Positions 3,237 to 46,693 of a DNA stretch of 55,008 nt are shown here, in pieces. The stretch lies in IMG/VR virus record IMGVR_UViG_3300045988_134234, positions 1-55,008 of that record. One strand, 5' to 3'. Position numbers and translations under genes: made by a program. This DNA is from a virus. Lineage: Duplodnaviria > Heunggongvirae > Uroviricota > Caudoviricetes. Below the pieces are notes generated by a model. That model ran no database searches. It saw nothing but the letters and a program-made list of their open reading frames with translations, and had not been told where the DNA came from. Positions within the stretch are counted from its first letter, which is position 1; each line of letters begins with the position of its first letter.

Positions 3237-4163
3237 TTAACTAACAATCCAGTCGGTCGCTGCTACATCTTCTGGCTGTAAATCAATCGCACAGATCTTG
3301 CCGTCGCGAATGGTGCGCCAGTTTTTCCGTGAGCCTCTTTCGGGCCATACCCAGACACTTTCAGGCCAGGATGCTCGACGGCATACGGTTGCATACCCTG
3401 TTTTAATCTTCTCTCTGGCGGTATGCAACGACAGGTTTGCCTTTGGACTTTCAGGCACAGGATGGTGAATGGCCTGAAATAGCCCCATCCTGGGATGATA
3501 CCAGCGTTTGTTACGTGGTTCTGCCTCCGACATAACCTGCTTAAAGGCTTTCCGGAAGGGGGCCAGGGCCACAATGGAGCGTCTCGCGAGCAAACCATCG
3601 GGAGTTAAAAACTCATGTGTATCGGTGGGAATCCGATACGCATTGACCAGGTTACGGCATTTGGCTTCAGTCAGGCCGCATTTCGCCGCTAACTGGCGGT
3701 AGCCAATGTAGCCTTCCGGAATATTGCCTTTCTTTATTTGCTCGACGGTTTCAGCGACTTTGGACACTTGTGCCGATACTTCGGCTACCTGGGCATTAAC
3801 GGCGTTGATCCGGCGTTCATGCTCAAGATGCATTTGCGCCATTTCGGCCAGGATTTCGGCTTTTGATTTTAACGGTCCCCTGGCATTCTCCAGTTCGCGC
3901 CAGCGGTCCACCAGCCGGGCGGTGAATTCGGGAGAGAGCTGCGCGACGACAATGATGCTATCGCGCTTGCCTTGCTCGCCTTCGAAGACGTAATAGCTCG
4001 CCGGGCGGCCTGCGGTGGGCTTTTCCTCAATTTGAGGAAAAGATATTACGCCCCGTTCCGCCAAGTGTTCAATGGTGCGTTTAACGTTATCAGGGCGCTT
4101 TCCTACCAGTTCCGCGATCTCAATGCTGGTCATTGTCGCTTTTTGAGAGATGGACAGATTCAT
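3237..4163 (-). CDS. Rha-family phage regulatory/antirepressor-like protein with DUF2829-like C-terminal domain
   Basis: N-terminus IEIAELVGKRPDNVKRTIEHL matches recalled Rha signature (IAE.FGK.H.NV.R.I..L); C-terminal 65 aa (CRRASW...VWVWPE...ATDWIVS) resembles the separate 70-aa ORF at 44006..44218. Confidence 0.6.
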   Translation of the reverse strand: MNLSISQKATMTSIEIAELVGKRPDNVKRTIEHLAERGVISFPQIEEKPTAGRPASYYVFEGEQGKRDSIIVVAQLSPEFTARLVDRWRELENARGPLKSKAEILAEMAQMHLEHERRINAVNAQVAEVSAQVSKVAETVEQIKKGNIPEGYIGYRQLAAKCGLTEAKCRNLVNAYRIPTDTHEFLTPDGLLARRSIVALAPFRKAFKQVMSEAEPRNKRWYHPRMGLFQAIHHPVPESPKANLSLHTAREKIKTGYATVCRRASWPESVWVWPERGSRKNWRTIRDGKICAIDLQPEDVAATDWIVS

Positions 4164-4378
4164 CAGTGCACCTCCACGCAGTTCATTGGCAGATTCCAGT
4201 AATTGAGGATCTCCATCGCATCAAGAGTGAAGCGAGCAGCAAAAATGCAGGGTTCTTCGGGAAGGTATGAGCGCGCCTCTGCTTCGGTAGCAGCCATTAC
4301 GCAGATATAAAGGTGTTTTTGGCAGGAATAGAAACGCCAGATAAATTCAGAATGAGTTGGGGTAGGGATAGTAGCCAT
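4163..4378 (-). CDS. small protein upstream of Rha-like gene (Icd/Ash-like position)
   Basis: 71 aa, AAGGAGG RBS, start overlaps stop of downstream gene; paralog at 44910..45134 shares EFIWRF...AATE.EARS motif. Confidence 0.5.
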   Translation of the reverse strand: MATIPTPTHSEFIWRFYSCQKHLYICVMAATEAEARSYLPEEPCIFAARFTLDAMEILNYWNLPMNCVEVH

Positions 4379-4379
4379 A

Positions 4380-4640
4380 TTGGCAGCCTCCTTTGACTAA
4401 GTTAAGGAGCTACCGCGTGAGGTTCCAATCTCAATGGCGGTAGCACTGACTGGGTTGGAACTACCGGCGTCAAAGGGAACCGGCCTGCCTTTCGGCAGCC
4501 CAGCCAGCACTACCATTGATCTCTGAGCTAAACGCTACGTATGGCTGTGCGATGGCGTGACACAAAAAAAGACGCTTTCGGCGTCTGTGTCGCCTTTGAC
4601 ATTATCCGGGGTTCCAATCCCGGCACCCGTTTTTCTAAGG
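4380..4640 (-). ncRNA. structured leader / candidate antisense-regulatory RNA (C4-like hypothesis)
   Basis: About 260 nt untranslated leader with repeated GATTGGAACC elements and a complementary GTTCCAACC element, multiple hairpins, and an anti-SD hairpin (CTCCTT...AAGGAG) sequestering the RBS of the 71-aa gene. Confidence 0.25.
4562..4586 (-). terminator. rho-independent terminator (minus strand)
   Basis: GACGC-cgaaa-GCGTC hairpin followed by T7 on minus strand. Confidence 0.55.
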
Positions 4641-4690
4641 TGCCGTAGAAATATACCTCACGATAATGCCAGGGCGCAACAGTCAGTATT

Positions 4691-4858
4691 TTATGCTTTG
4701 GCGGATTTCTTCCGGGCTTGCTTGCAGGCGTAGGCCATTGCTTTAGCTTTCACTTCATCCAGCTTTCCGGTGATCACTTCTTTTCCGAGAGTGACAAACC
4801 AGTCATAGCAACCGCCAGTAATGTTCTGGATTTGAAAGTTGAGGTAGCGAACGGTCAT
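4691..4858 (-). CDS. possible small protein (~55 aa)
   Basis: ORF below threshold read by eye (MTVRYLNFQIQNITGGCYDWFV...); G-rich RBS-like tract upstream; approximate coordinates. Confidence 0.3.
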   Translation of the reverse strand: MTVRYLNFQIQNITGGCYDWFVTLGKEVITGKLDEVKAKAMAYACKQARKKSAKA

Positions 4859-5179
4859 TTTGACCCCCCCAGCGCGAGTAAAGAATGCAGATTATCGCGT
4901 GAGTGGCGGACAACGAGTGATGGGAAAAGACAGTAGCTGTTCATAGTGTAGTGACTCCTTGCTTTCGGAGCCGCCATCGACTGTTCCACGGTCTGGTGGC
5001 GGCGCAATAAAGGTTGGAACACCGTGAGTCAACGGGGGCTTTTCAGCCACCTATATTGCACCGCCATTGGTATGGCGGCGGCAATCATACGAAAAACCAA
5101 ACGGTTTGTCTCAAAAAGTTGACCGGTGTACCAATCGGTTGTGAATGTACAACGGCGAATCTCACAATTCAACTTAAAA

Positions 5180-5202
5180 TGTTAGAAAATTAATTTATTA
5201 AT
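5180..5202. promoter_or_regulatory. operator-like motif TGTTAGAAAATTAATTTATTAA
   Basis: Member of a dispersed motif family (more than 12 copies) located at promoter regions. Confidence 0.4.
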
Positions 5203-5765
5203 TCAGTCACCATCTGATACAACGTCATTTCATCAGCATTGTGCCGCCTGAAATCTGCTTTGCCGCCTATTTTTCCATCAGCATGAACAGGAACCAACCA
5301 GGGGTATTGCTCGCGGATCTCTGCTGGCGCTGCGTGTTGATGGTGCCATTTACACAAAGGGAGGACGTATTTATGCGCGTTCTCTGCTGTTCTCCCGAAG
5401 ATGTGGTGCAGGGATACCACAGGGCTATGCTGTCCGTGCATATGGCAGGCAATGCAGGGGAGAGCACCGATGGCAGTTTGTATCCGGCGCTCATCTGCTG
5501 TGAGTGTTCTGCCTTTCAGGCCGCGTGACGCGCGAGTTTTTTTGACAGGAGCAGAAGCGGCCTTCTCTTTTCTTCGCTGTTCATATTGCTTCGCTTTTTC
5601 AATTTTCTTTTGCCGATATTCAGGCGATGCGGCTTTTTCTCGCGCACGCTGCTGCTGGCGTTGAGCTTGCTGAAGACGCTTTGCCCTTTGTTCCTCCCGC
5701 CATTTCGGATCAGCCAGTTTTTGCAGGGCTTTTTGTGTCTGTTTCTCCCAATAGCTTTGCTTCAT
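5190..5765 (-). CDS. HNH-family nuclease with basic N-terminal region (P1 Ref-like)
   Basis: C-terminal C..C / HH...N..H...LCKWHH HNH-like motif; Lys/Arg/Gln-rich low-complexity N-terminus; ATG chosen at Met15 of ORF 5190..5807 (a TTG at 5807 is the alternative); operator palindrome immediately upstream. Confidence 0.5.
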   Translation of the reverse strand: MKQSYWEKQTQKALQKLADPKWREEQRAKRLQQAQRQQQRAREKAASPEYRQKKIEKAKQYEQRRKEKAASAPVKKTRASRGLKGRTLTADERRIQTAIGALPCIACHMHGQHSPVVSLHHIFGRTAENAHKYVLPLCKWHHQHAAPAEIREQYPWLVPVHADGKIGGKADFRRHNADEMTLYQMVTELIN

Positions 5766-5810
5766 AGAAATACCCGGTTTGTCTACATCGCCGCTATGGT
5801 TGATCAAATG

Positions 5811-5840
5811 TGTTAGAAAATCAAAATTGATTTTCTAACA
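5811..5840. promoter_or_regulatory. 30-bp near-perfect palindromic operator TGTTAGAAAATCAAA/ATTGATTTTCTAACA
   Basis: Inverted pair of the dispersed motif between divergent Ref-like gene and the 5882.. operon. Confidence 0.6.
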
Positions 5841-5881
5841 CAAAATGAAGATACTTTTTTCAGACGCTATATCAGGAGGTC

Positions 5882-10381: not shown

Positions 10382-10413
10382 TCCTGAACACATCGTTTAT
10401 GCACTCAAAATGG

Positions 10414-10443
10414 TGTTAGAATATTGATTTTAATTTTCTAACA
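10414..10443. promoter_or_regulatory. operator-like inverted pair TGTTAGAA...TTTCTAACA
   Basis: Between phosphatase gene and the 10486 gene. Confidence 0.5.
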
Positions 10444-10485
10444 TATTATTTTACCGCTTGGAACAAAACAGAGTCGGTATACATT

Positions 10486-23405: not shown

Positions 23406-23462
23406 AGTACCCTCCGCAATAGGCGAGGGTACTTTACATTAAAATGCACTGTCTAAAAAGGT

Positions 23463-23484
23463 TGTTAGAAAATTAATTTATGAG
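23463..23484. promoter_or_regulatory. operator-like motif TGTTAGAAAATTAATTTATGAG
   Basis: Overlaps 3' end of cre-like gene, upstream of 23405 operon. Confidence 0.4.
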
Positions 23485-24786: not shown

Positions 24787-24859
24787 GAACAATCAAAAAA
24801 AAGCGGTTTTATCCTTTACTCACCTTGTTATTCAGCATAAATTTGTCACAGGACTTTTA

Positions 24860-24875
24860 TGTTAGAAAACTAAAT
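24860..24875. promoter_or_regulatory. operator-like motif TGTTAGAAAACTAAAT about 12 nt upstream of the 24888 ATG
   Basis: Motif immediately precedes RBS/start of the 345-aa gene. Confidence 0.45.
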
Positions 24876-24887
24876 CGAGTAGGAATA

Positions 24888-25925
24888 ATGAGTAAGAAGT
24901 CGATCGAGAATGAGTACAAACGGTTCCTGCAAACCGCTGAACGGTGGAAAGAGCTGGTGGTCGCAAACTCTGTTTTCCATGATACCAGTTATGTTGGCGA
25001 GGAATTTCGCCATGTTGCATTAACACATGATCCGGCTGTATTAGAAGAAGCTGAAAAATGCATAGCCGAATGGAAAGCCTTTGTTGATCTGTGTCGCAAG
25101 GATGATGACAAAGCCTCAAACATTGTTGAGTCGGTTTATTTACCGATCCCATTCATTGTTGAGGATACTAATCAGAGTACGCATATCGTTATGCAAAGCG
25201 CAACCACAACGAGAACATTTACGCGCGAAGACCTGCTGAAAAAATACGATAAAACTATAAAGAAAAGCATGAAAAACAGGATATTTTCACAGGTTGTCGG
25301 TGCGCTTGAAGAAGAACGCAGATTCTTCGCCGCTGAACGTGAGGGCGAGGTATACCGCGCAAGAAAAGAAGGTTATACCGATGTGGTGATTACCACCAAT
25401 ATCGAGGGCAACAATGGACTTTCACGCTTCAGAGTGGGTACGCACGGTGCGCTGATCTTTGCCAGAAAAGCAAACACAGAGATTCCCGTTGTTAACAACG
25501 TTGGTGAGCGCCGCACCCTTACCATTTACACTGGCATTAAACCGCTTCCGTGCGGACTTCTCGGCGAATTTGACCTTTATCGGGTTCGTGATCTGGAAAA
25601 GCAGCAGCCAAGCTATGTCGTGAAGTCATATATCCTGAGAAACATTGATATCCGCAATCAGAGTTTAAAAAACAAATCAGATAAAATGCTGGCCGAAGCC
25701 GATCCAGCCATACACCAGATCGTTAGCCGGAAAATTCAAGAGGCTAAAGATGCAATGGCAAGGCTGGATAAAATGGACCTGGAACTACTGGAAGTTATGA
25801 TTGCCTCCGGCGATGACCTGACAGGCATCCGCCTTACTGAAGCCAGGAAAAAATACGGTAAAAGCGTTGAAGAACGCTATGGGTACACATTCACACAAAC
25901 GATGTACGCGGCAAAACTCTGGTAA
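24888..25925 (+). CDS. hypothetical protein; candidate master repressor by position and operator context
   Basis: Internal ATG (Met22) of ORF 24825..25925 with AGGAA RBS; between lox/cre and terminase, convergent with pacB; no sequence-level family assignment possible. Confidence 0.35.
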   Translation: MSKKSIENEYKRFLQTAERWKELVVANSVFHDTSYVGEEFRHVALTHDPAVLEEAEKCIAEWKAFVDLCRKDDDKASNIVESVYLPIPFIVEDTNQSTHIVMQSATTTRTFTREDLLKKYDKTIKKSMKNRIFSQVVGALEEERRFFAAEREGEVYRARKEGYTDVVITTNIEGNNGLSRFRVGTHGALIFARKANTEIPVVNNVGERRTLTIYTGIKPLPCGLLGEFDLYRVRDLEKQQPSYVVKSYILRNIDIRNQSLKNKSDKMLAEADPAIHQIVSRKIQEAKDAMARLDKMDLELLEVMIASGDDLTGIRLTEARKKYGKSVEERYGYTFTQTMYAAKLW

Positions 25926-29224: not shown

Positions 29225-29301
29225 TTATCCCCCGGATAGAAAAAGACCGAGGGGATGATAATCAGCTTGTTAATACTGAGAAGACTGTCAAAAACATGAT
29301 G

Positions 29302-29331
29302 TATTAGAAAATTAATATTAATTTACTAACA
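29302..29331. promoter_or_regulatory. operator-like imperfect palindrome TATTAGAAAATTAAT/ATTAATTTACTAACA
   Basis: Upstream of the 29224 start. Confidence 0.5.
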
Positions 29332-29715
29332 CTACCAGCGGGATAAACGAACAACATGCTTAACTTTTGCCTCCCACTTCCCTTTATGTTTGTTGATCAC
29401 CGCCTGGGCCATCTTCAGACTGGCTTCAAAATCGGCTTTTCGACCACTATTACCCACCAGCAACGCTCCGTCTATTTCAGGTAAGCATAAGTAATCCTGC
29501 TCGACGGTAAGCGGCATTGATGATGTAACCTGGCAGGCTTTCCATCTGAAGCGTATGCGCACACTCCTGACTGACATCACGACATAACCTGATATTGTGC
29601 TCTTGTGTCCGGCGTCTGTGCGTGTAGCCTTGCATGATGTTATCTTGCAGGTGATGATGTCCCAACCAATGTGCATCGCATCCTCAATGCGTAATTTAGT
29701 AGCCTCGTACATCAA
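29332..29715 (-). CDS. hypothetical protein (127 aa)
   Basis: ORF; overlaps next gene. Confidence 0.4.
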   Translation of the reverse strand: MMYEATKLRIEDAMHIGWDIITCKITSCKATRTDAGHKSTISGYVVMSVRSVRIRFRWKACQVTSSMPLTVEQDYLCLPEIDGALLVGNSGRKADFEASLKMAQAVINKHKGKWEAKVKHVVRLSRW

Positions 29716-30741: not shown

Positions 30742-30817
30742 TGGTGGCCCCTACCGGACTTGAACCGGTGACCGTGCGATTATGAGTCGCCCGCTCTAAC
30801 CACTGAGCTAAGGGGCC
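30742..30817 (-). tRNA. tRNA anticodon CAU (Met or Ile2 via lysidine)
   Basis: RC reads GGCCCCTTAGCTCAGTGGTTAGAGC...CTCATAA...GGTTCAAGTCC...GGGGCCACCA; resembles recalled E. coli ileX/ileY-type tRNA. Confidence 0.8.
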
Positions 30818-31789: not shown

Positions 31790-31865
31790 TGGTGCCGATT
31801 AACGGACTCGAACCGCTGACATCCTGCTTACAAGGCAGGCGCTCTACCAACTGAGCTAAACCGGC
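31790..31865 (-). tRNA. tRNA-Thr (anticodon UGU)
   Basis: RC reads GCCGGTTTAGCTCAGTTGGTAGAGC GCCTGCCTTGTAAGCAGG...GGTTCGAGTCC...AATCGGCACCA. Confidence 0.8.
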
Positions 31866-31867
31866 AT

Positions 31868-31943
31868 TGGCGATGGTGGATGGATTTGAACCATCGACCC
31901 GTTGATTAACAGTCAACCGCTCTAACCGCTGAGCTACACCATC
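31868..31943 (-). tRNA. tRNA-Asn (anticodon GUU)
   Basis: RC reads GATGGTGTAGCTCAGCGGTTAGAGC GGTTGACTGTTAATCAACG...GGTTCAAATCC...CACCATCGCCA. Confidence 0.8.
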
Positions 31944-33259: not shown

Positions 33260-33289
33260 TGTTAGAAAGACAATTCTAATTTTCTAACA
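33260..33289. promoter_or_regulatory. operator-like inverted pair TGTTAGAAA-N12-TTTCTAACA
   Basis: Perfect 9-bp arms; downstream of the 402-aa gene, at the head of the non-coding tRNA island. Confidence 0.5.
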
Positions 33290-33291
33290 CA

Positions 33292-34520: not shown

Positions 34521-34534
34521 TTAGTTTTCTAACA
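34521..34534. promoter_or_regulatory. operator-like motif (TTAGTTTTCTAACA) in promoter of the 402-aa gene
   Basis: About 20 nt upstream of the 34500 start. Confidence 0.4.
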
Positions 34535-34575
34535 TATTTTATTAGTATGCAATTTCAATAAAAAGACTCAGGCAA

Positions 34576-35576: not shown

Positions 35577-35579
35577 CAA

Positions 35580-35590
35580 ATTTCTAACAC
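35580..35590. promoter_or_regulatory. operator-like motif abutting VRR-NUC start
   Basis: TGTGTTAGAAATTTG immediately 5' of start on minus strand. Confidence 0.35.
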
Positions 35591-36499: not shown

Positions 36500-39400
36500 T
36501 TAGGCCGCATCGGCGATTATTTTACGCAGTTCATCTACCGAGTAACGCGTAGATACCATCCATGCCGGACGGTCAAAGTTCACATCAGCAACCGGGTTTG
36601 CTTCAAAATTCCAGAAACGCCCGCCAATCTTCTTAATCGCGTCTTTGGCGTTCCGTATTGTCGAGGAACCAGGTTGGTCGGCAATGAGATAAACCGCGCC
36701 AACGTCCTCGCTGACGCTCCACCAGCGCCCGCGAACACGCGCCTTAGCGCGAATCGGCTTATCATTAACCACAATGATATAGTCATCATTCGCCGCTTCA
36801 TCAGCTCTGGCTTCTGCCACTGCCGCCTGCTCTTCTCTTTTGCTTTCAGCCTGTTCAAGCCTTTCCGCGATCTCTGATTCGGTGGCTCCGCCGTTTTTCA
36901 GCGATACATAGTCTTGCCACGTTGCTGATTTGAGCGCATCCGGCAACTCATTCACATAGTCACCGTCTTTCAACTCACGGGCGCGGCGGGTAGCCATTTC
37001 TACCAGGCGATTAACAGAAACAGCATCAGCAAAATCGTCCTTACTAATGTGTTTTTCATCAAATGCATTGATGACAGCCCCCACCTTAATCCACTGTGCT
37101 GCCGGTGATTCCAGGGGGTTATCAGCCTGGACAATGGCGAGTTTCGCTCCATCTACCCCATTATTCGCCAACTGTTCCAGTGCCGCCCATCCATCTGCAT
37201 CACTGAGTGATTTATATTGCTCAAACAATGCATCGCGCCAGGCCACCAGCGCAGAACGTGTTTTTTCGATCTTCGTCTTAATTTTCGCGATCTTGACCTG
37301 ATTAAACATCCGTTCAATATCATCGATATTGCTAAAGGCTTTCATCCTGCCCTTGAATAAACGGTATGCCAGCACGGTCCTCCAGAATGATTCCAGACCT
37401 TCTCCGGACGGTTTGCGGAACAAGCTAAGAATATCTTCAGAAGTGACTTTATTAAGCGAACGACCTGACAGACCACGCCCAGCCATCCAGTTTTCGAACT
37501 CCTGGGCAACATCATCCATCGTTGCCTGTGCGCCCCATGCCTGCATTCCCTGGATGTAATCATACCCATACAATGCCTGGAGGAATCCCTCACCGTCCAC
37601 GATATTCAGCGGGTTATCACTGGCTTGTATTTTTGCCACTTCACGCTTCAGCGCCTCATCGTTGCCATCTGGATATATCCATCGTTCAGGTGCTATATCC
37701 GATGCTCGCCCGATTTTTTGGCCTATCACGCCATCATAGGCCGATGACAGCGCGATCTGACCATCATCTGTGCGATATGCCCAGTATTTAATAGCTGACC
37801 CACCGCCCCATGCATTACCAGGTTTACCAGCAATAACATTCATTACCCCATTGCGAATAGCATCATAGAACTGATCGCGAGTAAGTATTGTTGATAGCTG
37901 GTGGCACTGAACACCACGCGCAGCCGTTGCGCGCGATTCAGCTACCCCCTCTTCAAAAGTTACCGCTTCAATCACAGAGTCAAACGGCAATGTAACGATT
38001 GACCCCGGTGATCGAGCGTAACGACTTGCTCTATCCAGCCAGGCGATACGGCAGAGGTATTGTGCTTTTTCACCGTCAATTTTTTCCACCCGGACAATCG
38101 CTGTTGTTTCGCGATCATCAATGACTGCACGGTAATAACTACCTTTATGCAACAGGATATTCTTGTCAGTGCGCATATATTCCTGTGGGTTCTGAATAAC
38201 ATCGATACTGATATCCAGCACACCAGACTTAATAGCGCGCTCCACATCACCACGAGAGCGTTTCATTATGGTATCCGCGTCTTTTGCCCTGGTGATCGCA
38301 AACCGCAGCACCCGCGCACGTTTTCTGTAGCTACTCAACTGCTCAAGCGCGAATTTTTGCCCATTCCTGTTCGTACCCGCTTTTATCAGGTCGTCAAGAT
38401 TTCGCTGGTAATACTCTATCTGTTCCATCGCGCTTTTCAGTTCTGTCTCCATCATGCCGATATCTTTTCCAGCGGCGTTTGCCGCTTTCAGGTAGATATC
38501 GAGAGCATTGTTGGCCTCGCGCTGTGCTTTCAGTTTCAGACGTTCTTCACGCTCTTGCGCCTGGCGAGCCATGATTGCGCGGCGTTCTTCCGGGTTTGCC
38601 GCCAGCATAATGGCGCGTTCATCAGCATCATCCGCATCACCATTGGCGATCTCTGACATGTCGGAGGTCATCACCATCTTGATCCAGTCTTTCTTACGTT
38701 TCAGCGTATCCAGACGGAAGTCGTCGAATGTGCCTTTGCCACAATAGTAGTGAACATTGACCTTCTCTTGCGGTGAACCTACGCGCGCACCGCGCCCATT
38801 TCGTTGGTCGATACTGGCTGGTGTCCAGGGTAGTGTCAGGTGGTGGATATCGGTTGTCCCGATATGCAGGTTAATACCTACTTCAGCCTTCTTGTTACAG
38901 ATAATGATGCGCGTGCGCCCTTCGTTATAGTCGGCGGCAATGCCTTCCATACCCTCAAGGCCAGCATCATTTTTAGCTGAGAGATAATCCTCATATTGGG
39001 CAAGTTTGCTGTAGTAGGTTTCCCATGCCCCTTCTTTGTATTCACCGTTTTTATTCGGAGTAGGTTCAGTCGGCTTATTCACCTTCTTCAGCTTGATGCC
39101 GCCAGCCTGGCTAACGGTCGTCGCATTGATAATGCCTATCTCCTGCTCCGGCATTTGCAGTGCACTGGCGATAATACGGCGCAGCTTCTGGTGCTGGGCT
39201 TTTTCATCAATGAAGACAATTTGTTTACCGTTCTTCAGACCTTCACGAAGGTTTTCGATCAGCGCGGCATACTTCGGCGGGATGGGGTGTGATACCTGCT
39301 GCAGATCAATCCCGGCGGCAGCAATGGCCTTCAGTATTTCAGCTTCCAGTTCAATGCTGGCACGTATTTCAACATGCGCCGGATGTTCACTAAAGGTGGT

Positions 39401-42400
39401 CTTCACTACCTTACTGGTGCGCGTACTAACCAGCCCACCAGCGCCGTCTTCTTCGGCCTCGTCTGCATCATCTGCCACTTTACCGCCAGCTACTTTTGGC
39501 AGGGCATCAGCAATAGCTTTTACCTTGTCTGCAAGCTCAACGGGGAACTGGAATGTAATCGCACTGGCATACAGATCCGGATCTATAGCAACCTTATCCA
39601 TGTCGCGGATGATGGAGAAGATGAAATCATCCGGTTTTTCGTTTGTGATATGCCCGTTTTCATCAACCGTCAGCGCATCTTTACTACTTAACTCCTGTGC
39701 ACGCTTACGAAGCTCTTCATAAGCAGCCTCCTGCTCCCCTGTCATCGGGATCTGCAAGGTATTCTCGACAATATCAGGGATTTTAACCGTCGCCCCGACG
39801 TCCGCAGCAGTCTTCAGAGTAGTCCAGCGATGGAAAATACCACGCAGGCCATCAAGGTTCTGGAAGCCAACCAGCCCCTGCTTCTCTTCCACTTCCCCGG
39901 AAATTTTCTGGACCTGAACTGTGGCTGTTTTACCAAACACACGAACGAAATCATCAGGCGTAATGATGCCCATGCGCATCCACTCTTCCTGCGGAATGAC
40001 AGTAGACAGCATGTTGAAGGCATCAATCGGACTGTTCACCAGCGGTGTTGCCGTCAGCATCACTACACCACGCCCGTTGTTGCGTTTCATCATGTACGCA
40101 GCTTTTACAGCCATGTCGCGGGCCATCTTGGATACTGCCGGGTTAGGCAAATATGCCAGTTGTCCCGCTTCACGCCCGGCATTAAAGGAGTTGCGGTAGT
40201 TATGCCCCTCGTCGGCAATCACGCTATCGAAGTTCATATCCTCAAAGTACGGGATATTCTGCTTCTTCGTTGTACCGGTATTCGCGGCCTGATCCTTAAT
40301 CTTGTTCTTCTTCTGCGCATCACGGTGTTTACCAGACGCCAGGTCAAGACGCCCCATTTCCACAGCATTAAAGACAGCTTGCTGTGAGTTCTCCTCGATG
40401 GTTTTTTCTCGTAGCGGGATAGACGCGAATTGTTCTTTTGTCATGATGACCGTTCGCCAATTTGACGACGGGATCATGTTCATGCGCTGAACGATAACGG
40501 CGCTGGCGGACTCTTTCACAACATTTCTGGTAAGAGGCTGCCCGTTACTGTCGAGGCGTGGTTCGCCATTTTCATCAAGCACCGGCGCGGTCAGAATATT
40601 TCCGCTGTCATCACGAACTTCATCCAGACCGATAAACATCATATTGGCGAAGGCATCAGCACTGTAGAAGCTCTGTGCCTCGTGATACCAGTTCTGATAA
40701 ACCGCCTTCGGAACAACAATACACGTGCGTTTAGTACGACCTGTTTCGAAGTTATACGCCTCAAGCGCAAGCGCGGTCGTGGTTTTACCCAGCCCGGTAC
40801 CAAATCCCATGATGCCGCGCCCATCTTCTGACAAGCGACGAACTTCTTCATTCTGATAAGTCAGAGGAATGCGCTTTCCACTAATCCCTTCCAGGCCAAG
40901 CGGTGCGTTAGAGTGCGTGAACGGAATGAAGCCATTGAATGCGTCGTTATAGTCACGGGCTATCTGATCCGCCTGCGGGTGGGTGCGTAACCAGTCGTTA
41001 AAGCTAACTTCCAGTTGAGCAATTTTATCCAGGTACTCGTTAGCGTTCTGCCCACGCGGTTTAACACCGTTCAGGTAGTTTTCTAACTGGTTCAGGAAGC
41101 CGTCTTTATTGTTGGCCTTCTTGAACTCATTCCCGTTTTTGCCGTTTACGGTTCGTAGCTGATAGCCGGTAAATACCCCGTCCTTACCTTCGTAATCGTC
41201 CGGAGATACCAGAATGCCATCGACGACCTTCAGATCAGGTTCAGTGTACTTAAACTCGTCATAGCCCTGCTCTGCCAGGAACTCTTTTATCAAGCGGCGA
41301 TCCAGCCAGCGGGCGTTCAGATTAACGGTGACTTTATTTAGTGGCGTGAAAATGCGTTTCTCTTCGATTTTCGCCAACTGACGCTCAAAGTTCGCTTTCT
41401 GCTCACCTGTTGATGCATCACGCCAGCCCACCAGCAATGCTGTTTTGGTTACAATATCGCCGCTGGTGGCGCGGTCCATCGGCAGCAGGCAGCCATACCC
41501 ATCAATAGCGATATCATCAAATTTCGCCAGGTATTCAAGGGCCGCGTCGTCGTCCTCTGGCAGTTCACCAGCAAACGCCTCACGAAAGTCGCCCAGCGTT
41601 ATAGGATTAAGGGCTACATCACTGAAAAGATGTGCTATCACTTGTTCCGGACGTGTAAAGTCAATACCGGCAGCACCATCCGTTACATCAAGTCGCCCTG
41701 CCAGAAGGTCAGAAGTGGAACCATCCTGTTTCACATTGCCAGTGAACGTCATCCAGTTTTTAGCGCCAGCTTCAGCAAGCCCATTCAGCTTAATCGCGTG
41801 CGGTGGTCCATACTTCGCAACTTCTGCTGCCGCCAGGCGGGATGCATCTGCCAGTTTGTCATCAACGTTCACCCCCAGGTTACGCAAATCAAGTGCCTTG
41901 TTGATCAACTGCCCTATCAACGCACCGCGCATAACGCGCTCCCTGTCTTTTTCTCGCTGTTTGCCAGCAAAGCGAATCATTGCTGCCACTTCATCACTGA
42001 CAACCGATGGATAGTCGGACGCGATCGCCGATATCTGGTCCCATGACAAAGCCAGAATCCCGTTTGTTGACTGGAACGCGATCTGCAGATCGCCAAACGT
42101 CGAAACACCATATCGACTTACATCAAGCGCGGAGGATTTGGTTGTCGTGTCCTTAACCCATTTCAGGCCATCAAACTCATGCCAGATACCGCCTACAAGA
42201 CGCTTATCCCCTACTTTTGCGCCCTGCCATGCCTGGGTAGTTACTCCGAGCAAATCCCAATTAATACGGCTTTCAAAGCGGCGTGATAACGCGGTTTTCA
42301 TCGACTCATTGGATACACGACCGTCCTTTTTCACCACCAGGGTATTGCGGAAGCTGGTGCGTTCCATGTCGCCGTAAACAAATCGCTTCCCTTCGGTTGT

Positions 42401-43351
42401 AAACCATTTCCCTTTGAGGAAGGTATCCCAAAGGACGTTTGCCGATTTGAGCGTTGCATCATCCGTGTCGGGGATCATCTCCAGGAAGGTTTCCGGGTGT
42501 TTACGCAATACCCATACGTCCACCACGGTATCTGTACCGGATTCGCTGAACGTACCAGAAGGCATACGATGCGCGCCCAAAAATTCCGCTTTACGGCTGA
42601 CTTTATCGCGCAATTTTTTGTATTTCGTACCATCGGTCATGCCATTCGGCACCACCAATACAATTAGTCCACCAGGCTTAACCTTGTCGATCGTGCGCAG
42701 CACAAAATAATTGCCAACGTTCTTCTCGTTTGCATATGCCGGATCAAGCCCGGCGACGCCGGAACGCCCTTCACCAAACGGTACGTTACCAACTGCGTGG
42801 TCATACATTGCATCTTTCGCCGCCAGCGCCTCAAACGCCCCGATATTCACATCATCTTCCGGGTGCAAAAGCTGGTTTATTCGACCGGAGATCGGAGACA
42901 GTTCGGCGCTGGTCATTATCATGCCCTGCCGTTTTGTCTCCTGGAAAATACCTGTGCCTGCTGACGGTTCCAGTACGTGACCGCTATCAATACCGTAGTC
43001 GCCGAAGAGATCCCATATACCTTCTGCCATAAACTGTGGCGTATAGTATTCGTATTGGCTGCCCTCACCATCTGTCAGGCCGCCTTCACCGGTATACCCG
43101 GCAAGAATCTGACGCTGTTCGTCAGTTAATTTCGCCCCATCGAAGCCAGGCGGAAGGGAATTAAGAAGATTTACTGCGGCGTTGTTTGCTGCCCGGCGTG
43201 TTTTCTGAATACTGACGCCATCGACTTTCTTAACGCCAAAGGTCACTACAGCTCGCGGTTTATGCAACCGACTAACAATTTCAATCAGCGCCCCAATGCT
43301 GGTGGCCTGGCTAATTGAATCAATTATTTTGTCCAAAGGAAGCCCCCTCAA
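36500..43351 (-). CDS. darB: giant methyltransferase-helicase (P1 DarB-like antirestriction protein)
   Basis: 2283 aa; N6-MTase motifs EPSAGTGIF and NVPFGE; SF2 helicase motifs GFGTGLGKTT, DEGHNYRN, TATPLVNS, QRNGRGARVG; size close to recalled P1 DarB (about 2255 aa). Confidence 0.7.
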   Translation of the reverse strand: MRGLPLDKIIDSISQATSIGALIEIVSRLHKPRAVVTFGVKKVDGVSIQKTRRAANNAAVNLLNSLPPGFDGAKLTDEQRQILAGYTGEGGLTDGEGSQYEYYTPQFMAEGIWDLFGDYGIDSGHVLEPSAGTGIFQETKRQGMIMTSAELSPISGRINQLLHPEDDVNIGAFEALAAKDAMYDHAVGNVPFGEGRSGVAGLDPAYANEKNVGNYFVLRTIDKVKPGGLIVLVVPNGMTDGTKYKKLRDKVSRKAEFLGAHRMPSGTFSESGTDTVVDVWVLRKHPETFLEMIPDTDDATLKSANVLWDTFLKGKWFTTEGKRFVYGDMERTSFRNTLVVKKDGRVSNESMKTALSRRFESRINWDLLGVTTQAWQGAKVGDKRLVGGIWHEFDGLKWVKDTTTKSSALDVSRYGVSTFGDLQIAFQSTNGILALSWDQISAIASDYPSVVSDEVAAMIRFAGKQREKDRERVMRGALIGQLINKALDLRNLGVNVDDKLADASRLAAAEVAKYGPPHAIKLNGLAEAGAKNWMTFTGNVKQDGSTSDLLAGRLDVTDGAAGIDFTRPEQVIAHLFSDVALNPITLGDFREAFAGELPEDDDAALEYLAKFDDIAIDGYGCLLPMDRATSGDIVTKTALLVGWRDASTGEQKANFERQLAKIEEKRIFTPLNKVTVNLNARWLDRRLIKEFLAEQGYDEFKYTEPDLKVVDGILVSPDDYEGKDGVFTGYQLRTVNGKNGNEFKKANNKDGFLNQLENYLNGVKPRGQNANEYLDKIAQLEVSFNDWLRTHPQADQIARDYNDAFNGFIPFTHSNAPLGLEGISGKRIPLTYQNEEVRRLSEDGRGIMGFGTGLGKTTTALALEAYNFETGRTKRTCIVVPKAVYQNWYHEAQSFYSADAFANMMFIGLDEVRDDSGNILTAPVLDENGEPRLDSNGQPLTRNVVKESASAVIVQRMNMIPSSNWRTVIMTKEQFASIPLREKTIEENSQQAVFNAVEMGRLDLASGKHRDAQKKNKIKDQAANTGTTKKQNIPYFEDMNFDSVIADEGHNYRNSFNAGREAGQLAYLPNPAVSKMARDMAVKAAYMMKRNNGRGVVMLTATPLVNSPIDAFNMLSTVIPQEEWMRMGIITPDDFVRVFGKTATVQVQKISGEVEEKQGLVGFQNLDGLRGIFHRWTTLKTAADVGATVKIPDIVENTLQIPMTGEQEAAYEELRKRAQELSSKDALTVDENGHITNEKPDDFIFSIIRDMDKVAIDPDLYASAITFQFPVELADKVKAIADALPKVAGGKVADDADEAEEDGAGGLVSTRTSKVVKTTFSEHPAHVEIRASIELEAEILKAIAAAGIDLQQVSHPIPPKYAALIENLREGLKNGKQIVFIDEKAQHQKLRRIIASALQMPEQEIGIINATTVSQAGGIKLKKVNKPTEPTPNKNGEYKEGAWETYYSKLAQYEDYLSAKNDAGLEGMEGIAADYNEGRTRIIICNKKAEVGINLHIGTTDIHHLTLPWTPASIDQRNGRGARVGSPQEKVNVHYYCGKGTFDDFRLDTLKRKKDWIKMVMTSDMSEIANGDADDADERAIMLAANPEERRAIMARQAQEREERLKLKAQREANNALDIYLKAANAAGKDIGMMETELKSAMEQIEYYQRNLDDLIKAGTNRNGQKFALEQLSSYRKRARVLRFAITRAKDADTIMKRSRGDVERAIKSGVLDISIDVIQNPQEYMRTDKNILLHKGSYYRAVIDDRETTAIVRVEKIDGEKAQYLCRIAWLDRASRYARSPGSIVTLPFDSVIEAVTFEEGVAESRATAARGVQCHQLSTILTRDQFYDAIRNGVMNVIAGKPGNAWGGGSAIKYWAYRTDDGQIALSSAYDGVIGQKIGRASDIAPERWIYPDGNDEALKREVAKIQASDNPLNIVDGEGFLQALYGYDYIQGMQAWGAQATMDDVAQEFENWMAGRGLSGRSLNKVTSEDILSLFRKPSGEGLESFWRTVLAYRLFKGRMKAFSNIDDIERMFNQVKIAKIKTKIEKTRSALVAWRDALFEQYKSLSDADGWAALEQLANNGVDGAKLAIVQADNPLESPAAQWIKVGAVINAFDEKHISKDDFADAVSVNRLVEMATRRARELKDGDYVNELPDALKSATWQDYVSLKNGGATESEIAERLEQAESKREEQAAVAEARADEAANDDYIIVVNDKPIRAKARVRGRWWSVSEDVGAVYLIADQPGSSTIRNAKDAIKKIGGRFWNFEANPVADVNFDRPAWMVSTRYSVDELRKIIADAA

Positions 43352-43488: not shown

Positions 43489-43974
43489 ATGGCAAACATT
43501 GAACCTCGCTGGCTTATTGAGGCCCGTAAAAATATTGGAGTCACCGAAATAAAAGGAGCGAAACACAATCCAGAGATCGTTCAGTTCTGGCGGGATATTA
43601 AGCGCAGCGGAATTAAAGACGACGAAACGCCGTGGTGCGCTGCATTTGTTGGTGCAATGCTGGAACGTGTAGGTATCCGCTCAACAAGATTTGAGTCGGC
43701 AAAATCCTATCTGGATTGGGGCGAGAAATTAGATACACCGGCATACGGATGTATCGTTGTATTTACTCGCGCAGGCGGTGGGCATGTAGGCTTTGTTGTC
43801 GGACACCGCGCCAATGGCGATCTGCTTGTCTTGGGTGGGAACCAGGGGGATGCTGTTAATATTCGCGCATTCCCAACATCAAGAGTGTCTGGCTATCGCT
43901 GGCCTGCTGGCGAACCACGCAATACAGCTCTGTTACCAGTCGGAGACGCAGCAACCTCAACTAATGAGGCATAA
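43489..43974 (+). CDS. NlpC/P60- or CHAP-like peptidase family protein
   Basis: Conserved Cys (TPWCAAFVG) and His (GGGHVGFVVG) spacing typical of papain-like cell-wall hydrolases. Confidence 0.5.
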   Translation: MANIEPRWLIEARKNIGVTEIKGAKHNPEIVQFWRDIKRSGIKDDETPWCAAFVGAMLERVGIRSTRFESAKSYLDWGEKLDTPAYGCIVVFTRAGGGHVGFVVGHRANGDLLVLGGNQGDAVNIRAFPTSRVSGYRWPAGEPRNTALLPVGDAATSTNEA

Positions 43975-43978
43975 AAAA

Positions 43979-43997
43979 GCCCCGGCCAGGCCGGGGC
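43979..43997. terminator. GC-rich hairpin between convergent genes
   Basis: GCCCCGG-ccagg-CCGGGGC; A6/T6 on one side. Confidence 0.45.
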
Positions 43998-44005
43998 ATC
44001 ACACT

Positions 44006-44218
44006 TCAAGTTACGATCCAATCATTACCGACTGCATCCGCCGTCGATAAATCGACTTCCCGGATCTGGTATCCATTGATACAAAACCATCCAGTAGTAG
44101 AGCTATTATCAGGCCAGACCCATACACCAACACTCCATGCTTTACGGCGGCACACTTCAGCCTGTCCTTCCCTGATTTTTTTTACCGCCTGCATGATGTC
44201 CATCACTCGCCTCCCCAA
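44006..44218 (-). CDS. DUF2829-like small protein (separate ORF; fused to Rha-like gene in the first module)
   Basis: AVKKIREGQAEVCRRKAW...VWVWP...NDWIVT parallels C-terminus of 3237..4163 product; overlaps upstream ORF by 16 nt in a different frame. Confidence 0.4.
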   Translation of the reverse strand: MGRRVMDIMQAVKKIREGQAEVCRRKAWSVGVWVWPDNSSTTGWFCINGYQIREVDLSTADAVGNDWIVT

Positions 44219-44910
44219 CCGATTACCTGGAATTGCCCCATCCTTGGGTGATACCAGCGTTTTCCTCGGTGTTCAGCCTCCGACATCATCAGGGTAAAGG
44301 CATTCATGAAGGGAGATAAGGCCACAATAGTACGACGCGACAATACCCCCTCTGGCGTCAAAAACTCATGCGTATCTGTGGGGATCCGGTAAGCGTTGAC
44401 CAGGTTGCGGCATTTGGCTTCAGTCAGGCCGCATTTCGCCGCCAACTGGCGATAGCCAATGTAGCCTTCTGGTATGTTGCCTTTCTTGATCTGCTCGACG
44501 GTTTCAGCGACCTGGCTAACCTTTGACTCAACAGCATGAAGCCGCTTTTGCTGCTGAACTGCATTCGCAGCCATTGCAGCGATCATCTCTATTTCGGTCA
44601 ACGGCTGGCGTACTTGTTCTTCCAGTTCGCGCCAGCGGTCCACCAGCCGGGCGGTGAATTCGGGAGAGAGCTGCGCGACGACGATAATGCTATCGCGCTT
44701 GCCTTGCTCGCCTTCGAAGACGTAAGCCTCAACACTACGTCGTAGTCCTAAGTTATTGATTTTTTCGAAAACCTCAATTTGAGGACGAACAATAACGCCA
44801 CCTTTGGCTAATGTCTCAATAGTGCGTTTCACATTGTCATGACGTTTTCCCACCAGCTCCGCGATCTCAATGCTGGTCATTGATGGCTTTTCGAGAATGC
44901 AGATATCCAT
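44203..44910 (-). CDS. Rha-family regulatory/antirepressor-like protein (paralog of 3237..4163)
   Basis: IEIAELVGKRHDNVKRTIETL; long stretches identical to the first module. Confidence 0.6.
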   Translation of the reverse strand: MDICILEKPSMTSIEIAELVGKRHDNVKRTIETLAKGGVIVRPQIEVFEKINNLGLRRSVEAYVFEGEQGKRDSIIVVAQLSPEFTARLVDRWRELEEQVRQPLTEIEMIAAMAANAVQQQKRLHAVESKVSQVAETVEQIKKGNIPEGYIGYRQLAAKCGLTEAKCRNLVNAYRIPTDTHEFLTPEGVLSRRTIVALSPFMNAFTLMMSEAEHRGKRWYHPRMGQFQVIGWGGE

Positions 44911-45134
44911 CAGTGAGCCTCCGCAATGCCGGGATTGGTAATATTGCGATACCAGGGATTGGTGTTTGGTTGTGGGGAAGTAGAGAAACGACCAGTGAGA
45001 ACGCCATACTGATCAGGGATCAGAGAACGGGCTTCTTTTTCAGTTGCGGCAATTGCGAAGTGATCGCAGTGTTTTTGCAGGGAGTGAAAACGCCAGATGA
45101 ATTCTGGACGTGAGCAAGGATTGGCATTAACCAT
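44910..45134 (-). CDS. small protein (paralog of 4163..4378)
   Basis: EFIWRFHSLQKH...AIAATEKEARS. Confidence 0.5.
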   Translation of the reverse strand: MVNANPCSRPEFIWRFHSLQKHCDHFAIAATEKEARSLIPDQYGVLTGRFSTSPQPNTNPWYRNITNPGIAEAH

Positions 45135-45159
45135 AGTTACGGCCTCGTAAGTTGATAAA

Positions 45160-45360
45160 CAACCTGCGACCCGCTGTCAAACAGGTGGCAGGACGTGACA
45201 GGGTTGACAGACTGGCACTTACGAAACCAGCAGGCCGAAGCCTCCCCATCACGCCCCACCATAATTCGGGCGTAACGTGGTTTTACGGACACAAAAATAC
45301 CGCAATATCGGAAATGTGCGGTTGTCCGCGTAAGTATTCAGGCTGTCAAACCTGGTCGCA
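45160..45360. repeat. TGTCAAAC / GTTGACAG short repeats in leader region
   Basis: CGCTGTCAAACAGG, GGGTTGACAGACTGG, GGCTGTCAAACCTGG: two direct copies plus one complementary copy. Confidence 0.4.
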
Positions 45361-45462
45361 GAATTTGCTACGACGGCATGAATATAAGCCTGAACATTAG
45401 AAAGATCAACAGAATTTTTATCAAATGCTGTTTTTTAGTGACAATGTAAATCATACATTCTT

Positions 45463-45491
45463 GATTAGAAACATCAATTTAATTTTCTAAC
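45463..45491. promoter_or_regulatory. operator-like inverted pair GATTAGAAA...TTTTCTAACA (plus a single copy at about 45395..45410)
   Basis: Upstream of second Icd/Ant-like module. Confidence 0.5.
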
Positions 45492-45549
45492 ATACATTTT
45501 CGAGCGATGAAATTCCCGCCGCACGGTTATTGTACAGTCAATCGCAACA

Positions 45550-46497
45550 TCATCCCCGAAAGCCCTCCGGAATTGACCAGTCTTCCCGGTCAAATTCAGA
45601 CCTATAGCCACGCTGTTTCATCAGGTCAAATGCTTCATTGATGGTTGCACATCCCTGGGAAGCAGAATAATCCATAGAGAAATCCAGGGCGCTGGATCGT
45701 TTGGGCTTATTCACTGTGGTAGCACTACGTAACCATGCAAATTTTTTTGCCAGTTTTTCAGCGGTACGATACAGAGCCTGCCGTTTTGCGTACCCCTCGT
45801 CTGAACGACGCTTTGCAGCTCTCGCTTTTGCTGCCGCCAGGCAGTGGTTGGTATGTTCTTCCCTGATTACTGTCAAGCCATTATCCGCTTGAGAACTATC
45901 TGCTGGTGAAGCCTTTGGCTGAACCGCGCATGATCTTTCTCTTCTTTTGGCTATAGAGTGACTCTTATTTTCTATTGGCTGTTCATTTTGAACATGGGGG
46001 GACTTGTTCAATTTGAACAGGGGGTTCCCAGTTTCAAAAAAATAACGAACCTTTGAAATCAACTGCTTAACCAGTTTTGTGGCGTTGGCAAATTTGATGC
46101 CCTGCTTACTCCCTATCTCCATTGCTACATGAATGAAGTGGAGAAATTGTGTTGTAAACCGGTACACGTTACACACCTGAGCATTGTTATTCGCTACCTG
46201 ATGCTGCTTAACAAGCATTCCGCACTTCGTCGCTTCGGTAAATGCCCGGCGCACAGTAGAAATACTGCGTCCTGTAATCTCGGACATATCAGCATATGAG
46301 CGACGGATCATGTATTCATCGGTAGCTCCTGCCAGGTTGGCGAACTCGGCAATAATGGCGCTATGTGAAGGGGAAAGAAAACCGCTATGACGAGCAAAAA
46401 AACTCAACTGATGACCTTTGATTTTTTTGTGGTATTCAGTGTTGTTTTTATACTCAGAAGTGTTGAAAGTAACTGAAACTGAATTTAAAATACTCAC
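45550..46497 (-). CDS. HTH-containing protein; candidate replication initiator (speculative)
   Basis: HTH-like MSEITGRSISTVRRAFTEATKCGML; own operator-bearing promoter; repeats downstream. Confidence 0.3.
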   Translation of the reverse strand: MSILNSVSVTFNTSEYKNNTEYHKKIKGHQLSFFARHSGFLSPSHSAIIAEFANLAGATDEYMIRRSYADMSEITGRSISTVRRAFTEATKCGMLVKQHQVANNNAQVCNVYRFTTQFLHFIHVAMEIGSKQGIKFANATKLVKQLISKVRYFFETGNPLFKLNKSPHVQNEQPIENKSHSIAKRRERSCAVQPKASPADSSQADNGLTVIREEHTNHCLAAAKARAAKRRSDEGYAKRQALYRTAEKLAKKFAWLRSATTVNKPKRSSALDFSMDYSASQGCATINEAFDLMKQRGYRSEFDREDWSIPEGFRG

Positions 46498-46669
46498 CAG
46501 ATAGTTCCGTGAAAAATCTATCTACCGTATAAATCTATGCCAGTGGATTTATACACCCAAAAGCCGCTACTCAGCGGCTTTTGCTTTTTTTGGCAGTCGC
46601 TACCGAAGCAGTGACCGCGATCCTACTCGATCACGTGCCGTCGGATCAACAGTGTATAAAAACACACTG

Positions 46670-46693
46670 TGTTAGAAAATTAAGCTAGCTTTT
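46670..46693. promoter_or_regulatory. operator-like motif TGTTAGAAAATTAAGCTAGC
   Basis: In the 200-bp gap upstream of the 46497 start. Confidence 0.45.

Follow-up and report, generated by a model that had tools for sequence, protein, structure and literature searches.

The 55,008-nt viral sequence analysed here (IMG/VR record IMGVR_UViG_3300045988_134234, positions 1–55,008; referred to below as the window) is a D6-like phage-plasmid, a relative of phage P1, and carries two switches with different RNA addresses. The one described in this study, module 2, occupies the minus strand between nt 45493 and 43973, and is very probably (at a probability of about 0.85) a complete and functional immI operon of the P1 type. 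The basis of this assignment is a set of observed features, namely the RNA elements of the leader, the complementarity of their short sites and its covariation among relatives, homology to P1, translational coupling signals, an operator motif, and purifying selection on icd. Both the system and the lineage are already known. Two switches per element are typical of this family and have been in print since 2019, when dual c4/icd regions were reported in D6-like elements; in the D6-like plasmid pYU39_89, an ImmI-related region with c4, icd and an antirepressor was described next to a peptidoglycan hydrolase gene (PMC6799933).

In the direction of transcription, module 2 consists of an operator pair with the outer promoter, an inner promoter, an a1/b1 element, c4, the target sites a2 and b2, icd, ant, an open reading frame (ORF) of 65 codons, and a terminator. 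The three ORFs overlap one another, so that the whole forms one compact unit. An earlier interpretation of the same DNA, made from its letters and ORFs alone (the sequence-only reading), had recognised here an Icd/Ant-like module with an operator of its own, paralogous to one about 40 kb away, and all of its elements were found; the distance to the other copy (module 1) is ~40.8 kb. That it is a paralogue stands, while its designation as the second copy is arbitrary, because the copy at 44–45 kb is the orthologue of P1 immI. The leader, described earlier as roughly 320 nt, measures ~310 nt from the likely start at the outer promoter (~45443) to the icd ATG (45134).

The leader RNAs and their pairing sites

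The antisense RNA c4 was detected at nt 45266–45181 (this and all further elements of the module lie on the minus strand unless stated otherwise), where the Rfam C4 model (RF01695) matches over its full length (profile positions 1–87) with 69.6 bits relative to a cut-off of 45. Alignment to P1 c4 predicts a mature RNA of 77 nt (45184..45260). The structure is closed by a long stem and includes a UUCG hairpin, with segment b' (CGUAAGU, 45223–45217) in the large loop of the second hairpin and segment a' (CUGUCAA, 45210–45204) in an unpaired, single-stranded joint. When c4 is folded alone it adopts the Rfam structure, with a minimum free energy of -43.3 kcal/mol (z = -4.5). It is identical to P1 c4 except for the b' loop, and both the stem and the 3' CCACC are as in P1.

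Upstream of c4 lies the IsrK-like a1/b1 element (45292..45387), composed of a 5' hairpin, a second hairpin with a1 (UUGACAG, 45349–45343) in its loop, single-stranded b1 (ACUUACG, 45335–45329), and a weak terminator-like hairpin (45321–45298) that closes the element together with a U-run (45297–45292). The Rfam model for the c4 target, c4-a1b1 (RF03163), matches at 45387–45335 with 55.2 bits (cut-off 46.7). The second copies of the targets are found on the other side of c4: a2 (UUGACAG, 45174..45180) lies 3 nt downstream of its 3' end and b2 (ACUUACG, 45146..45152) follows, in the same places as the a2 and b2 sites annotated in P1. Site b2 abuts and overlaps the Shine-Dalgarno sequence of icd, GAGG (45146–45143), which precedes the ATG at 45134. 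The a':a2 duplex is 7 bp in length, and that of b' with b2 is continuous, with 10 pairs (8 bp and 2 G-U) and a computed energy of -11.1 kcal/mol, as against -5.7 kcal/mol on the corresponding target of module 1. Folding of the whole leader places a1 and b1 in cis pairing with a' and b'.

The a sites are the repeats of the sequence-only reading, which had recorded two copies and one complementary element in the leader. The sequence GTTTGACAG occurs exactly twice in the window, both times on the minus strand (45351–45343 and 45182–45174, corresponding to a1 and a2), and CTGTCAAC once on that strand (45210–45203, corresponding to a'); these fall on the a1, a2 and a' sites annotated in P1. The c4 gene itself and a second trio of sites (b1 and b2, ACTTACG; b', CGTAAGT) had been overlooked. 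By number alone the copies of GTTTGACAG are not significant, as 10 of 100 shuffled sequences also contained at least two. Their significance lies in their position and in the way they covary in relatives.

Across the leader and into the beginning of icd (45023–45409), DNA identity is high, at 88–90% to P1 and ~85% to P7. Every annotated feature of P1 immI (P2c4/P51a, P1c4/P51b, a1, b1, c4, a2, b2, icd) has a counterpart in the window, and the order is the same, from the operator through to icd and then a coupled downstream gene. The address a' is also that of P1, which combines CUGUCAA with CACUAAC. The pair in P7 is CUGCUAA with CACAAUC, while in the window, as in D6, CUGUCAA is combined with a third b type, CGUAAGU.

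From at least 80 IMG/VR loci that encode relatives of the module 2 Icd, 62 distinct full-length leaders of the P1 class were aligned (using MAFFT, across the whole length, within each class). They display at least two a-types (a' being CUGUCAA or CUGCUAA) and at least five b-types (b' being CACAAUC, CACUAAC, CGUAAGU, CAUUCGU or CACAAGU), which occur in eight combinations. Despite this variety, standard pairs are retained in 434 of 434 cells for each of a1:a', a2:a', b1:b' and b2:b', that is, in all 62 leaders. Compensatory, double-sided changes are seen at two of the seven a positions and six of the seven b positions (8/14 overall). Complementary covariation among three sites is what would be expected of RNA–RNA pairing, and the earlier proposal that the repeats are pairing elements is upheld by this, by the Rfam matches to C4 and c4-a1b1, and by the coincidence with the sites annotated in P1.

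The coupled genes and their control

The first gene, icd (44910..45134), encodes 74 aa and, as had been suggested, is Icd-like: the product matches NCBIfam NF033153 (phage_ICD_like) with 40 bits (cut-off 25) and phrog_1426 with E = 6e-39, and shares 57% identity with P1 Icd. Searches of Pfam gave no match for the Icd of either module. The ATG of ant overlaps the icd stop codon as TGATG, a signal of translational coupling. The ant gene (44203..44910) encodes a Rha-family putative antirepressor of 235 aa, with a Rha/winged-helix DNA-binding domain (PF09669, HTH_24), so the Rha-like protein of the earlier description is also present. The PF09669 match covers the whole profile (1–91 of 91) with a score above the cut-off (36.7 against 29.9 bits), and the protein matches phrog_63, 'anti-repressor Ant' (E = 2e-48). 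The 65-aa ORF (44006..44203) follows, its ATG at 44203 overlapping the ant stop codon as a further TGATG behind the Shine-Dalgarno sequence GGGGAGG. The operon ends at an intrinsic terminator (43973..43997; hairpin 43997–43979, GCCCCGGCC-TGG-CCGGGGC with 8/8 G-C pairs, then a T-run) found by a terminator scan. It is bidirectional, being shared with a convergent gene on the plus strand (43489–43974) for a 161-aa CHAP-domain (TIGR02594-type) peptidoglycan hydrolase.

A close described relative is phage D6. Its orf17–19 region aligns with 97% of the locus at 91.8% DNA identity, and gene content and order agree, as do the neighbouring peptidoglycan hydrolase and repL genes; the a' and b' types of its module 2 are those of the window. 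Between the two elements, icd differs by 8 synonymous and no non-synonymous codons. In ant, 37 codons differ synonymously and 24 non-synonymously, and the latter are concentrated in residues 22–62, within the winged helix. These patterns are consistent with selection on working genes and not with decay. A pseudogene would have been at odds with the proposal of a second active module, and none was found, all ORFs being intact and coupled. The D6/window differences in Ant residues ~22–62 (44725–44850) form a cluster in a protein that is otherwise nearly invariant, and the module 1 Ant shows the same picture; this segment may be a specificity-determining surface.

The putative operator pair, placed earlier near 45463..45491, is present, although its halves are uneven. 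The strong half-site, AATTTTCTAACAT (45481..45493, plus strand), is an exact match to a motif found throughout the window, lies just upstream of the -35 box of the outer promoter, and aligns with the position of the P1 C1 operator Oc4/Op51. Its predicted partner, the degenerate half-site ATGTTTCTAATCA (45462..45474), overlaps the -35 box and spacer of that promoter, and its core, TGTTTCTAA, is conserved in D6. The two are arranged back to back at an offset of 19 bp, a geometry shared by three clear bivalent pairs elsewhere in the window (5810/5829, 10413/10432 and 29301/29320). The window motif is of the D6 type, AATTTTCTAACAY (consensus ttnAnaTTAATTTTCTAACAY), and differs from that of P1, ATTGCTCTAATAAATTT. 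It occurs 14 times in the window relative to 1.9 expected, a number reached by none of 100 shuffled sequences. The copies lie at 5179–5191 (in module 1), 5810–5841, 10413–10444, 23462–23474, 24859–24871, 29301–29332, 33278–33290, 34523–34535, 35578–35590, 45481–45493 and 46669–46681 (upstream of repL), three of these being the back-to-back pairs just mentioned. They are probably the operator set of a C1-like repressor of this element, analogous to the dispersed mono- and bivalent C1 operators of P1 but of another sequence. A 366-aa ORF on the plus strand (24825–25925) shows distant similarity to P1 C1 in a tblastn comparison (E = 1e-5; 241 aa aligned with 21% identity) and has an operator copy (24859–24871) at its start; it is the candidate for the primary repressor, on which the Ant proteins would presumably act.

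Two sigma-70-like promoters were predicted by a promoter scan. The outer one (45450..45477; TTGATG, 16 nt, TATGAT), identified by its match to consensus only, corresponds to P2c4/P51a and is placed relative to the operator as in P1. The inner one (45381..45409; TTGATC, 17 nt, TATATT) occupies exactly the alignment columns of the annotated P1c4 promoter of P1, and is the counterpart of P1c4/P51b. The putative operator pair overlaps the outer promoter, while the inner promoter has no recognisable operator, an arrangement that parallels P51a and P51b of P1.

In P1, RNase P makes the 5' cut of c4, and Rho terminates the untranslated icd RNA. This mechanism was reportedly treated by Citron and Schuster (1990), Riedel et al. 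(1993) and Biere et al. (1992). If module 2 acts by analogy with P1, and its upstream element by analogy with Gifsy-1, transcription would proceed from both promoters, the outer one under a bivalent-type operator for the C1-like repressor. The leader would present first the IsrK-like a1/b1 element with its weak terminator and then c4, which would be cut out as in P1. The exposed segments a' and b' would pair with a2 and b2 on transcripts of the same kind. Because b2 lies against the ribosome-binding site of icd, this pairing would keep icd untranslated, and the icd RNA would presumably be subject to Rho termination. Translation of ant and the 65-aa ORF would be coupled to that of icd through the TGATG overlaps, so that neither product would be made in the lysogen. 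Where c4 is limiting, or is titrated by RNA bearing a1/b1 (in cis or in trans), Icd, Ant and the 65-aa protein would be produced. Icd would then block cell division, and the Rha-type Ant would promote lytic growth by antagonising the C1-like repressor. The c4/icd/ant mechanism of P1 is summarised in PMC8201110, and an activating, decoy-like role of the upstream IsrK RNA was shown in Gifsy-1 (PMC4825925).

Several points weigh against a functional P1-type operon. The isrK model (RF01394) matches the upstream element (45374–45293) at 45.5 bits in a permissive Rfam scan, which is below its cut-off of 50. The internal terminator of the leader is weak (a 6-bp stem with a loop of ~12 nt) and was missed by the terminator scan, and the degenerate operator half-site has 5/13 mismatches. 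The b' loop of module 1 is computed to bind the downstream region of module 2 at -9.7 kcal/mol, in a duplex that is interrupted yet near the cognate values. Lastly, Ant has no significant similarity to P1 Ant1 (BLASTP E = 0.11), and its putative role as an antirepressor of C1 draws on the gene position and the PHROG label. By sequence comparison, the slot held by Ant1/2 in P1 and P7 appears to have been filled by a non-orthologous replacement, an unrelated protein of the Rha family, with the 65-aa ORF in addition.

The last point opens the way to the most serious of the rival explanations, in which the output is of the IsrK/AnrP type and the Rha-type protein activates transcription of another phage operon, as AnrP does for antQ, instead of binding C1 as an antirepressor. 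In Gifsy-1, the isrK-orf45-anrP locus has an upstream decoy small RNA ending at a terminator, a processed stable RNA, and a small ORF coupled to an antirepressor-like gene, and this same layout of isrK, small ORF and coupled anrP activates transcription of antQ (PMC4825925). The Rha/winged-helix DNA-binding domain of Ant, its distance from Ant1, and the resemblance of the upstream element to isrK (a near match in module 2, where c4-a1b1 is the best fit, and a full match of 62.7 bits in module 1) would all suit such an activator, as would the clustering of the D6 differences in the N-terminal winged helix-turn-helix (residues 22–62), where a specificity surface is expected. On the other hand, relatives are annotated as antirepressors both by PHROG and by NCBI, and the last product of the P1 operon, whose leader and icd are nearly the same, is a proven antirepressor. 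No antQ-like target turned up, although no search aimed at one was made. The published model for Gifsy-1 IsrK also involves alternative mRNA structures and not antisense pairing of the c4 type. An AnrP-like output is considered unlikely on balance, but it retains real weight. A looser parallel to immI is the CI RNA of satellite P4, an antisense RNA that is cut out of the leader of its own operon and has complementary sites (seqA/seqC) on both sides (PMC4825925); it differs in causing transcription termination of replication genes, in belonging to another RNA family, and in the absence of icd or ant.

The 65-aa ORF had been described as a separate, DUF2829-like ORF of 70 aa. The ORF is there, and a 70-aa version could begin at an upstream TTG (44218–44006), but the ATG at 44203 is the better start and the DUF2829 label is weakly supported, its scores being below threshold. 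The match to PF11195 (Tad2-like/DUF2829) spans positions 1–72 of the 73-position profile with E = 0.016 and 16.1 bits, under the cut-off of 25, and a homologue (P0005) comes closer, at 23.9 bits. An AlphaFold (AF2) model of the ORF has a predicted local distance difference test score (pLDDT) of 76.5, and Foldseek ranks Tad2 chains in places 1–11 (probability up to 0.92, template modelling score 0.55, E = 0.18 or higher). A remote fold relationship to Tad2 is probable from these models. A word-indexed protein search returned only three near-identical matches, which carry no Pfam labels, and a sequence search of the PDB gave nothing at E values up to 10. An exhaustive hidden Markov model search gave seven matches among 1.84 billion representatives, and one of these (P0008, a repetitive protein of 825 aa) was rejected as a low-complexity artefact.

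With this resemblance, the ORF could be conceived of as anti-defence cargo, a minimal Tad2/DUF2829 sponge for Thoeris-type signalling nucleotides that is controlled by immI and stands outside the antirepressor function. The coverage of the whole PF11195 profile, the near-threshold homologue, the AF2 model and the unbroken run of Tad2 chains speak in its favour. Every one of these scores is nevertheless under its family or significance threshold, and the family is tiny. The ORF, moreover, shares 40% identity with the C-terminal 65 residues of the 308-aa Ant of module 1, indicating that module 2 carries as a separate, coupled cistron a domain which in module 1, and in phrog_63 generally, forms the C-terminus of Ant. 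Fusion to Ant argues for a role within the antirepressor (for example in oligomerisation or ligand sensing), and a cargo function is accordingly judged improbable, clearly more so than an AnrP-like output.

Two modules in one element

Module 1 (3237–5191, minus strand) follows the same plan as module 2: an operator (5179–5191), two small ORFs, isrK with a strong terminator (4643–4565; 62.7 bits, above the Rfam cut-off), a C4 RNA (4520–4433; 77.1 bits), icd (4378–4163), and ant (4163–3237), whose 308-aa product includes the fused C-terminal domain. A gene for a Ref-type RecA-dependent nuclease (5193–5807, minus strand) lies directly upstream. Both modules carry the same operator motif. The addresses are entirely different, those of module 1 being a' GUUCCAA and b' CCUUUGAC, with a1/a2 UUGGAAC and b1/b2 GUCAAAGG; in D6, the module 1 addresses are different again (GUCUCAA and CCUUUUGC). 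Cognate duplexes between loop and target are continuous and have computed energies of -9 to -13 kcal/mol, whereas most of those across modules lie at -4 to -6 kcal/mol and are interrupted, the exception in energy being the module 1 b' duplex described above, which is interrupted too. By these calculations the two switches look orthogonal and would be controlled independently at the RNA level. The earlier suggestion of dual immunity control fits two modules whose c4 loops are not complementary to each other's targets. Partial complementarity was noted between a' of module 2 (CUGUCAA, 45204–45210) and the b' loop of module 1 (CCUUUGACG, 4466–4479), with six pairs and -5.3 kcal/mol, which could be chance or a weak contact between the two c4 RNAs.

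Three-way covariation was likewise seen among IMG/VR leaders of the module 1 (IsrK) class, in which at least five a-types and at least four b-types occur. A single exception was seen (locus L115), in which a1 (UUGAGAC) mismatches a' (GUUCCAA) while a2 still matches; a recombination junction between a1 and c4 is the likely cause.

The other suggestion of the sequence-only reading, a recent duplication, did not hold up. If module 2 were a recent copy of module 1, now redundant or inactive, with one of the two decaying, the 70% identity of the Ant proteins and the stretches of 90–97% nucleotide identity would be accounted for, but little else. The Icd proteins are only 40% identical, the c4 loops and their targets differ completely, and the leaders belong to different classes, the upstream elements being best fitted by isrK in module 1 and by c4-a1b1 in module 2, with the module 2 leader resembling that of P1 far more than that of module 1. 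Decay is contradicted by the intact, coupled ORFs and the purely synonymous divergence of icd from D6, and recency by the retention of the pair in D6, in plasmids and in IMG/VR contigs (see below). Identity between the ant regions (44006–44910 compared with 3237–4163) is patchy, varying from 35 to 97% in 60-nt windows, with near-identical blocks at codons ~70–90 and ~140–190. This resembles mosaic exchange and not the copying of a whole module, and suggests, as far as sequence comparison goes, that the paralogues have exchanged segments with each other or with a common pool. A recent duplication is therefore very improbable.

Module 2 is immediately preceded, on its upstream side, by a RepL-like lytic replication gene (45550–46497, minus strand); the P1 operon has kilA-repL downstream of it and sim on its other side. 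A terminator scan of nt 43900–45600 found none between the end of repL (45550) and the module 2 promoters, so transcription of repL could continue into the immI leader. The least probable of all the alternatives, that the leader repeats are iterons bound by RepL or another DNA-binding protein, can draw on this neighbourhood and on the unremarkable count of the 9-mer, but it is opposed by the presence of only two direct copies, 169 nt apart, by a third copy that is a reverse complement lying in the unpaired joint of a high-scoring C4 RNA within an RNA gene, by the location of the P1 lytic origin inside repL and not in immI, by the coincidence with the annotated RNA-binding sites of P1, and by the complementary covariation of the three copies across the 62 relatives, shared by the independent b trio, which is not predicted for protein-bound iterons.

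On its other flank, beyond the peptidoglycan hydrolase gene, module 2 is followed by a gene for a 2283-aa DarB-like methyltransferase/helicase (36500–43351, minus strand). The window also contains three tRNA genes (30745–30817, 31793–31865 and 31871–31943, all on the minus strand, 68–75 bits), which are typical of P1- and D6-like phage-plasmids.

Distribution and reassortment of the addresses

The module 2 locus is up to 96.8% identical to sequences of E. coli plasmids. Matches were found in 579 plasmid records for module 2 and 456 for module 1 (pYU39_89 is among them, with 95% identity to module 1), and 92–109 records carry both modules at a coverage of at least 80%. At least 17 IMG/VR contigs, including P1-like ones, have leaders of both classes. 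A check of relatives for one or two copies thus shows a pair that is conserved in phage D6 and in many E. coli and Salmonella plasmids. The P1-like phages RCS47 and JL22 have a leader of the module 1 class besides the standard immI. One P1-like IMG/VR contig (2703718869_000013, 97 kb) has three icd loci (L065, L083 and L119), comprising two leaders of the P1 class with different b addresses (CACAAGUG and CACUAACG) and one locus of the module 1 class. An element usually has two mutually orthogonal addresses, and sometimes three.

Addresses reassort, as seen from the fact that the window shares with D6 the address of module 2 and not that of module 1. A tentative interpretation, to which we give slightly less than even odds, is that the a and b sites constitute a modular, two-part address code that is reshuffled by recombination among otherwise near-identical phage-plasmids of the P1/D6 type. 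Nothing relevant to multiple types of c4 specificity was found in the literature searched; nor were the third b address, the computed orthogonality, the breadth of reassortment or the Tad2-like resemblance found described there, and these additions are incremental.

The value of the present analysis lies mainly in annotation. The GenBank record of D6 marks both icd and ant pairs, and plasmid annotations mark icd and the Rha/Ant gene, but the c4 RNAs, their targets and the operators are not annotated. Clinical E. coli and Salmonella commonly carry plasmids of this kind. The three-way covariation provides a clean natural series of compensatory mutations for an RNA–RNA interaction, and the b address is neither that of P1 nor that of P7. 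Two modules that look orthogonal in one genome open the way to simple experiments on RNA-encoded heteroimmunity and on the co-residence of P1-like plasmids. If each address represents a separate immunity group, the result would be a combinatorial, RNA-encoded heteroimmunity far richer than the classical P1/P7 pair. With a second module, a single prophage could then detect or withstand superinfecting relatives of two classes, each independently of the other.

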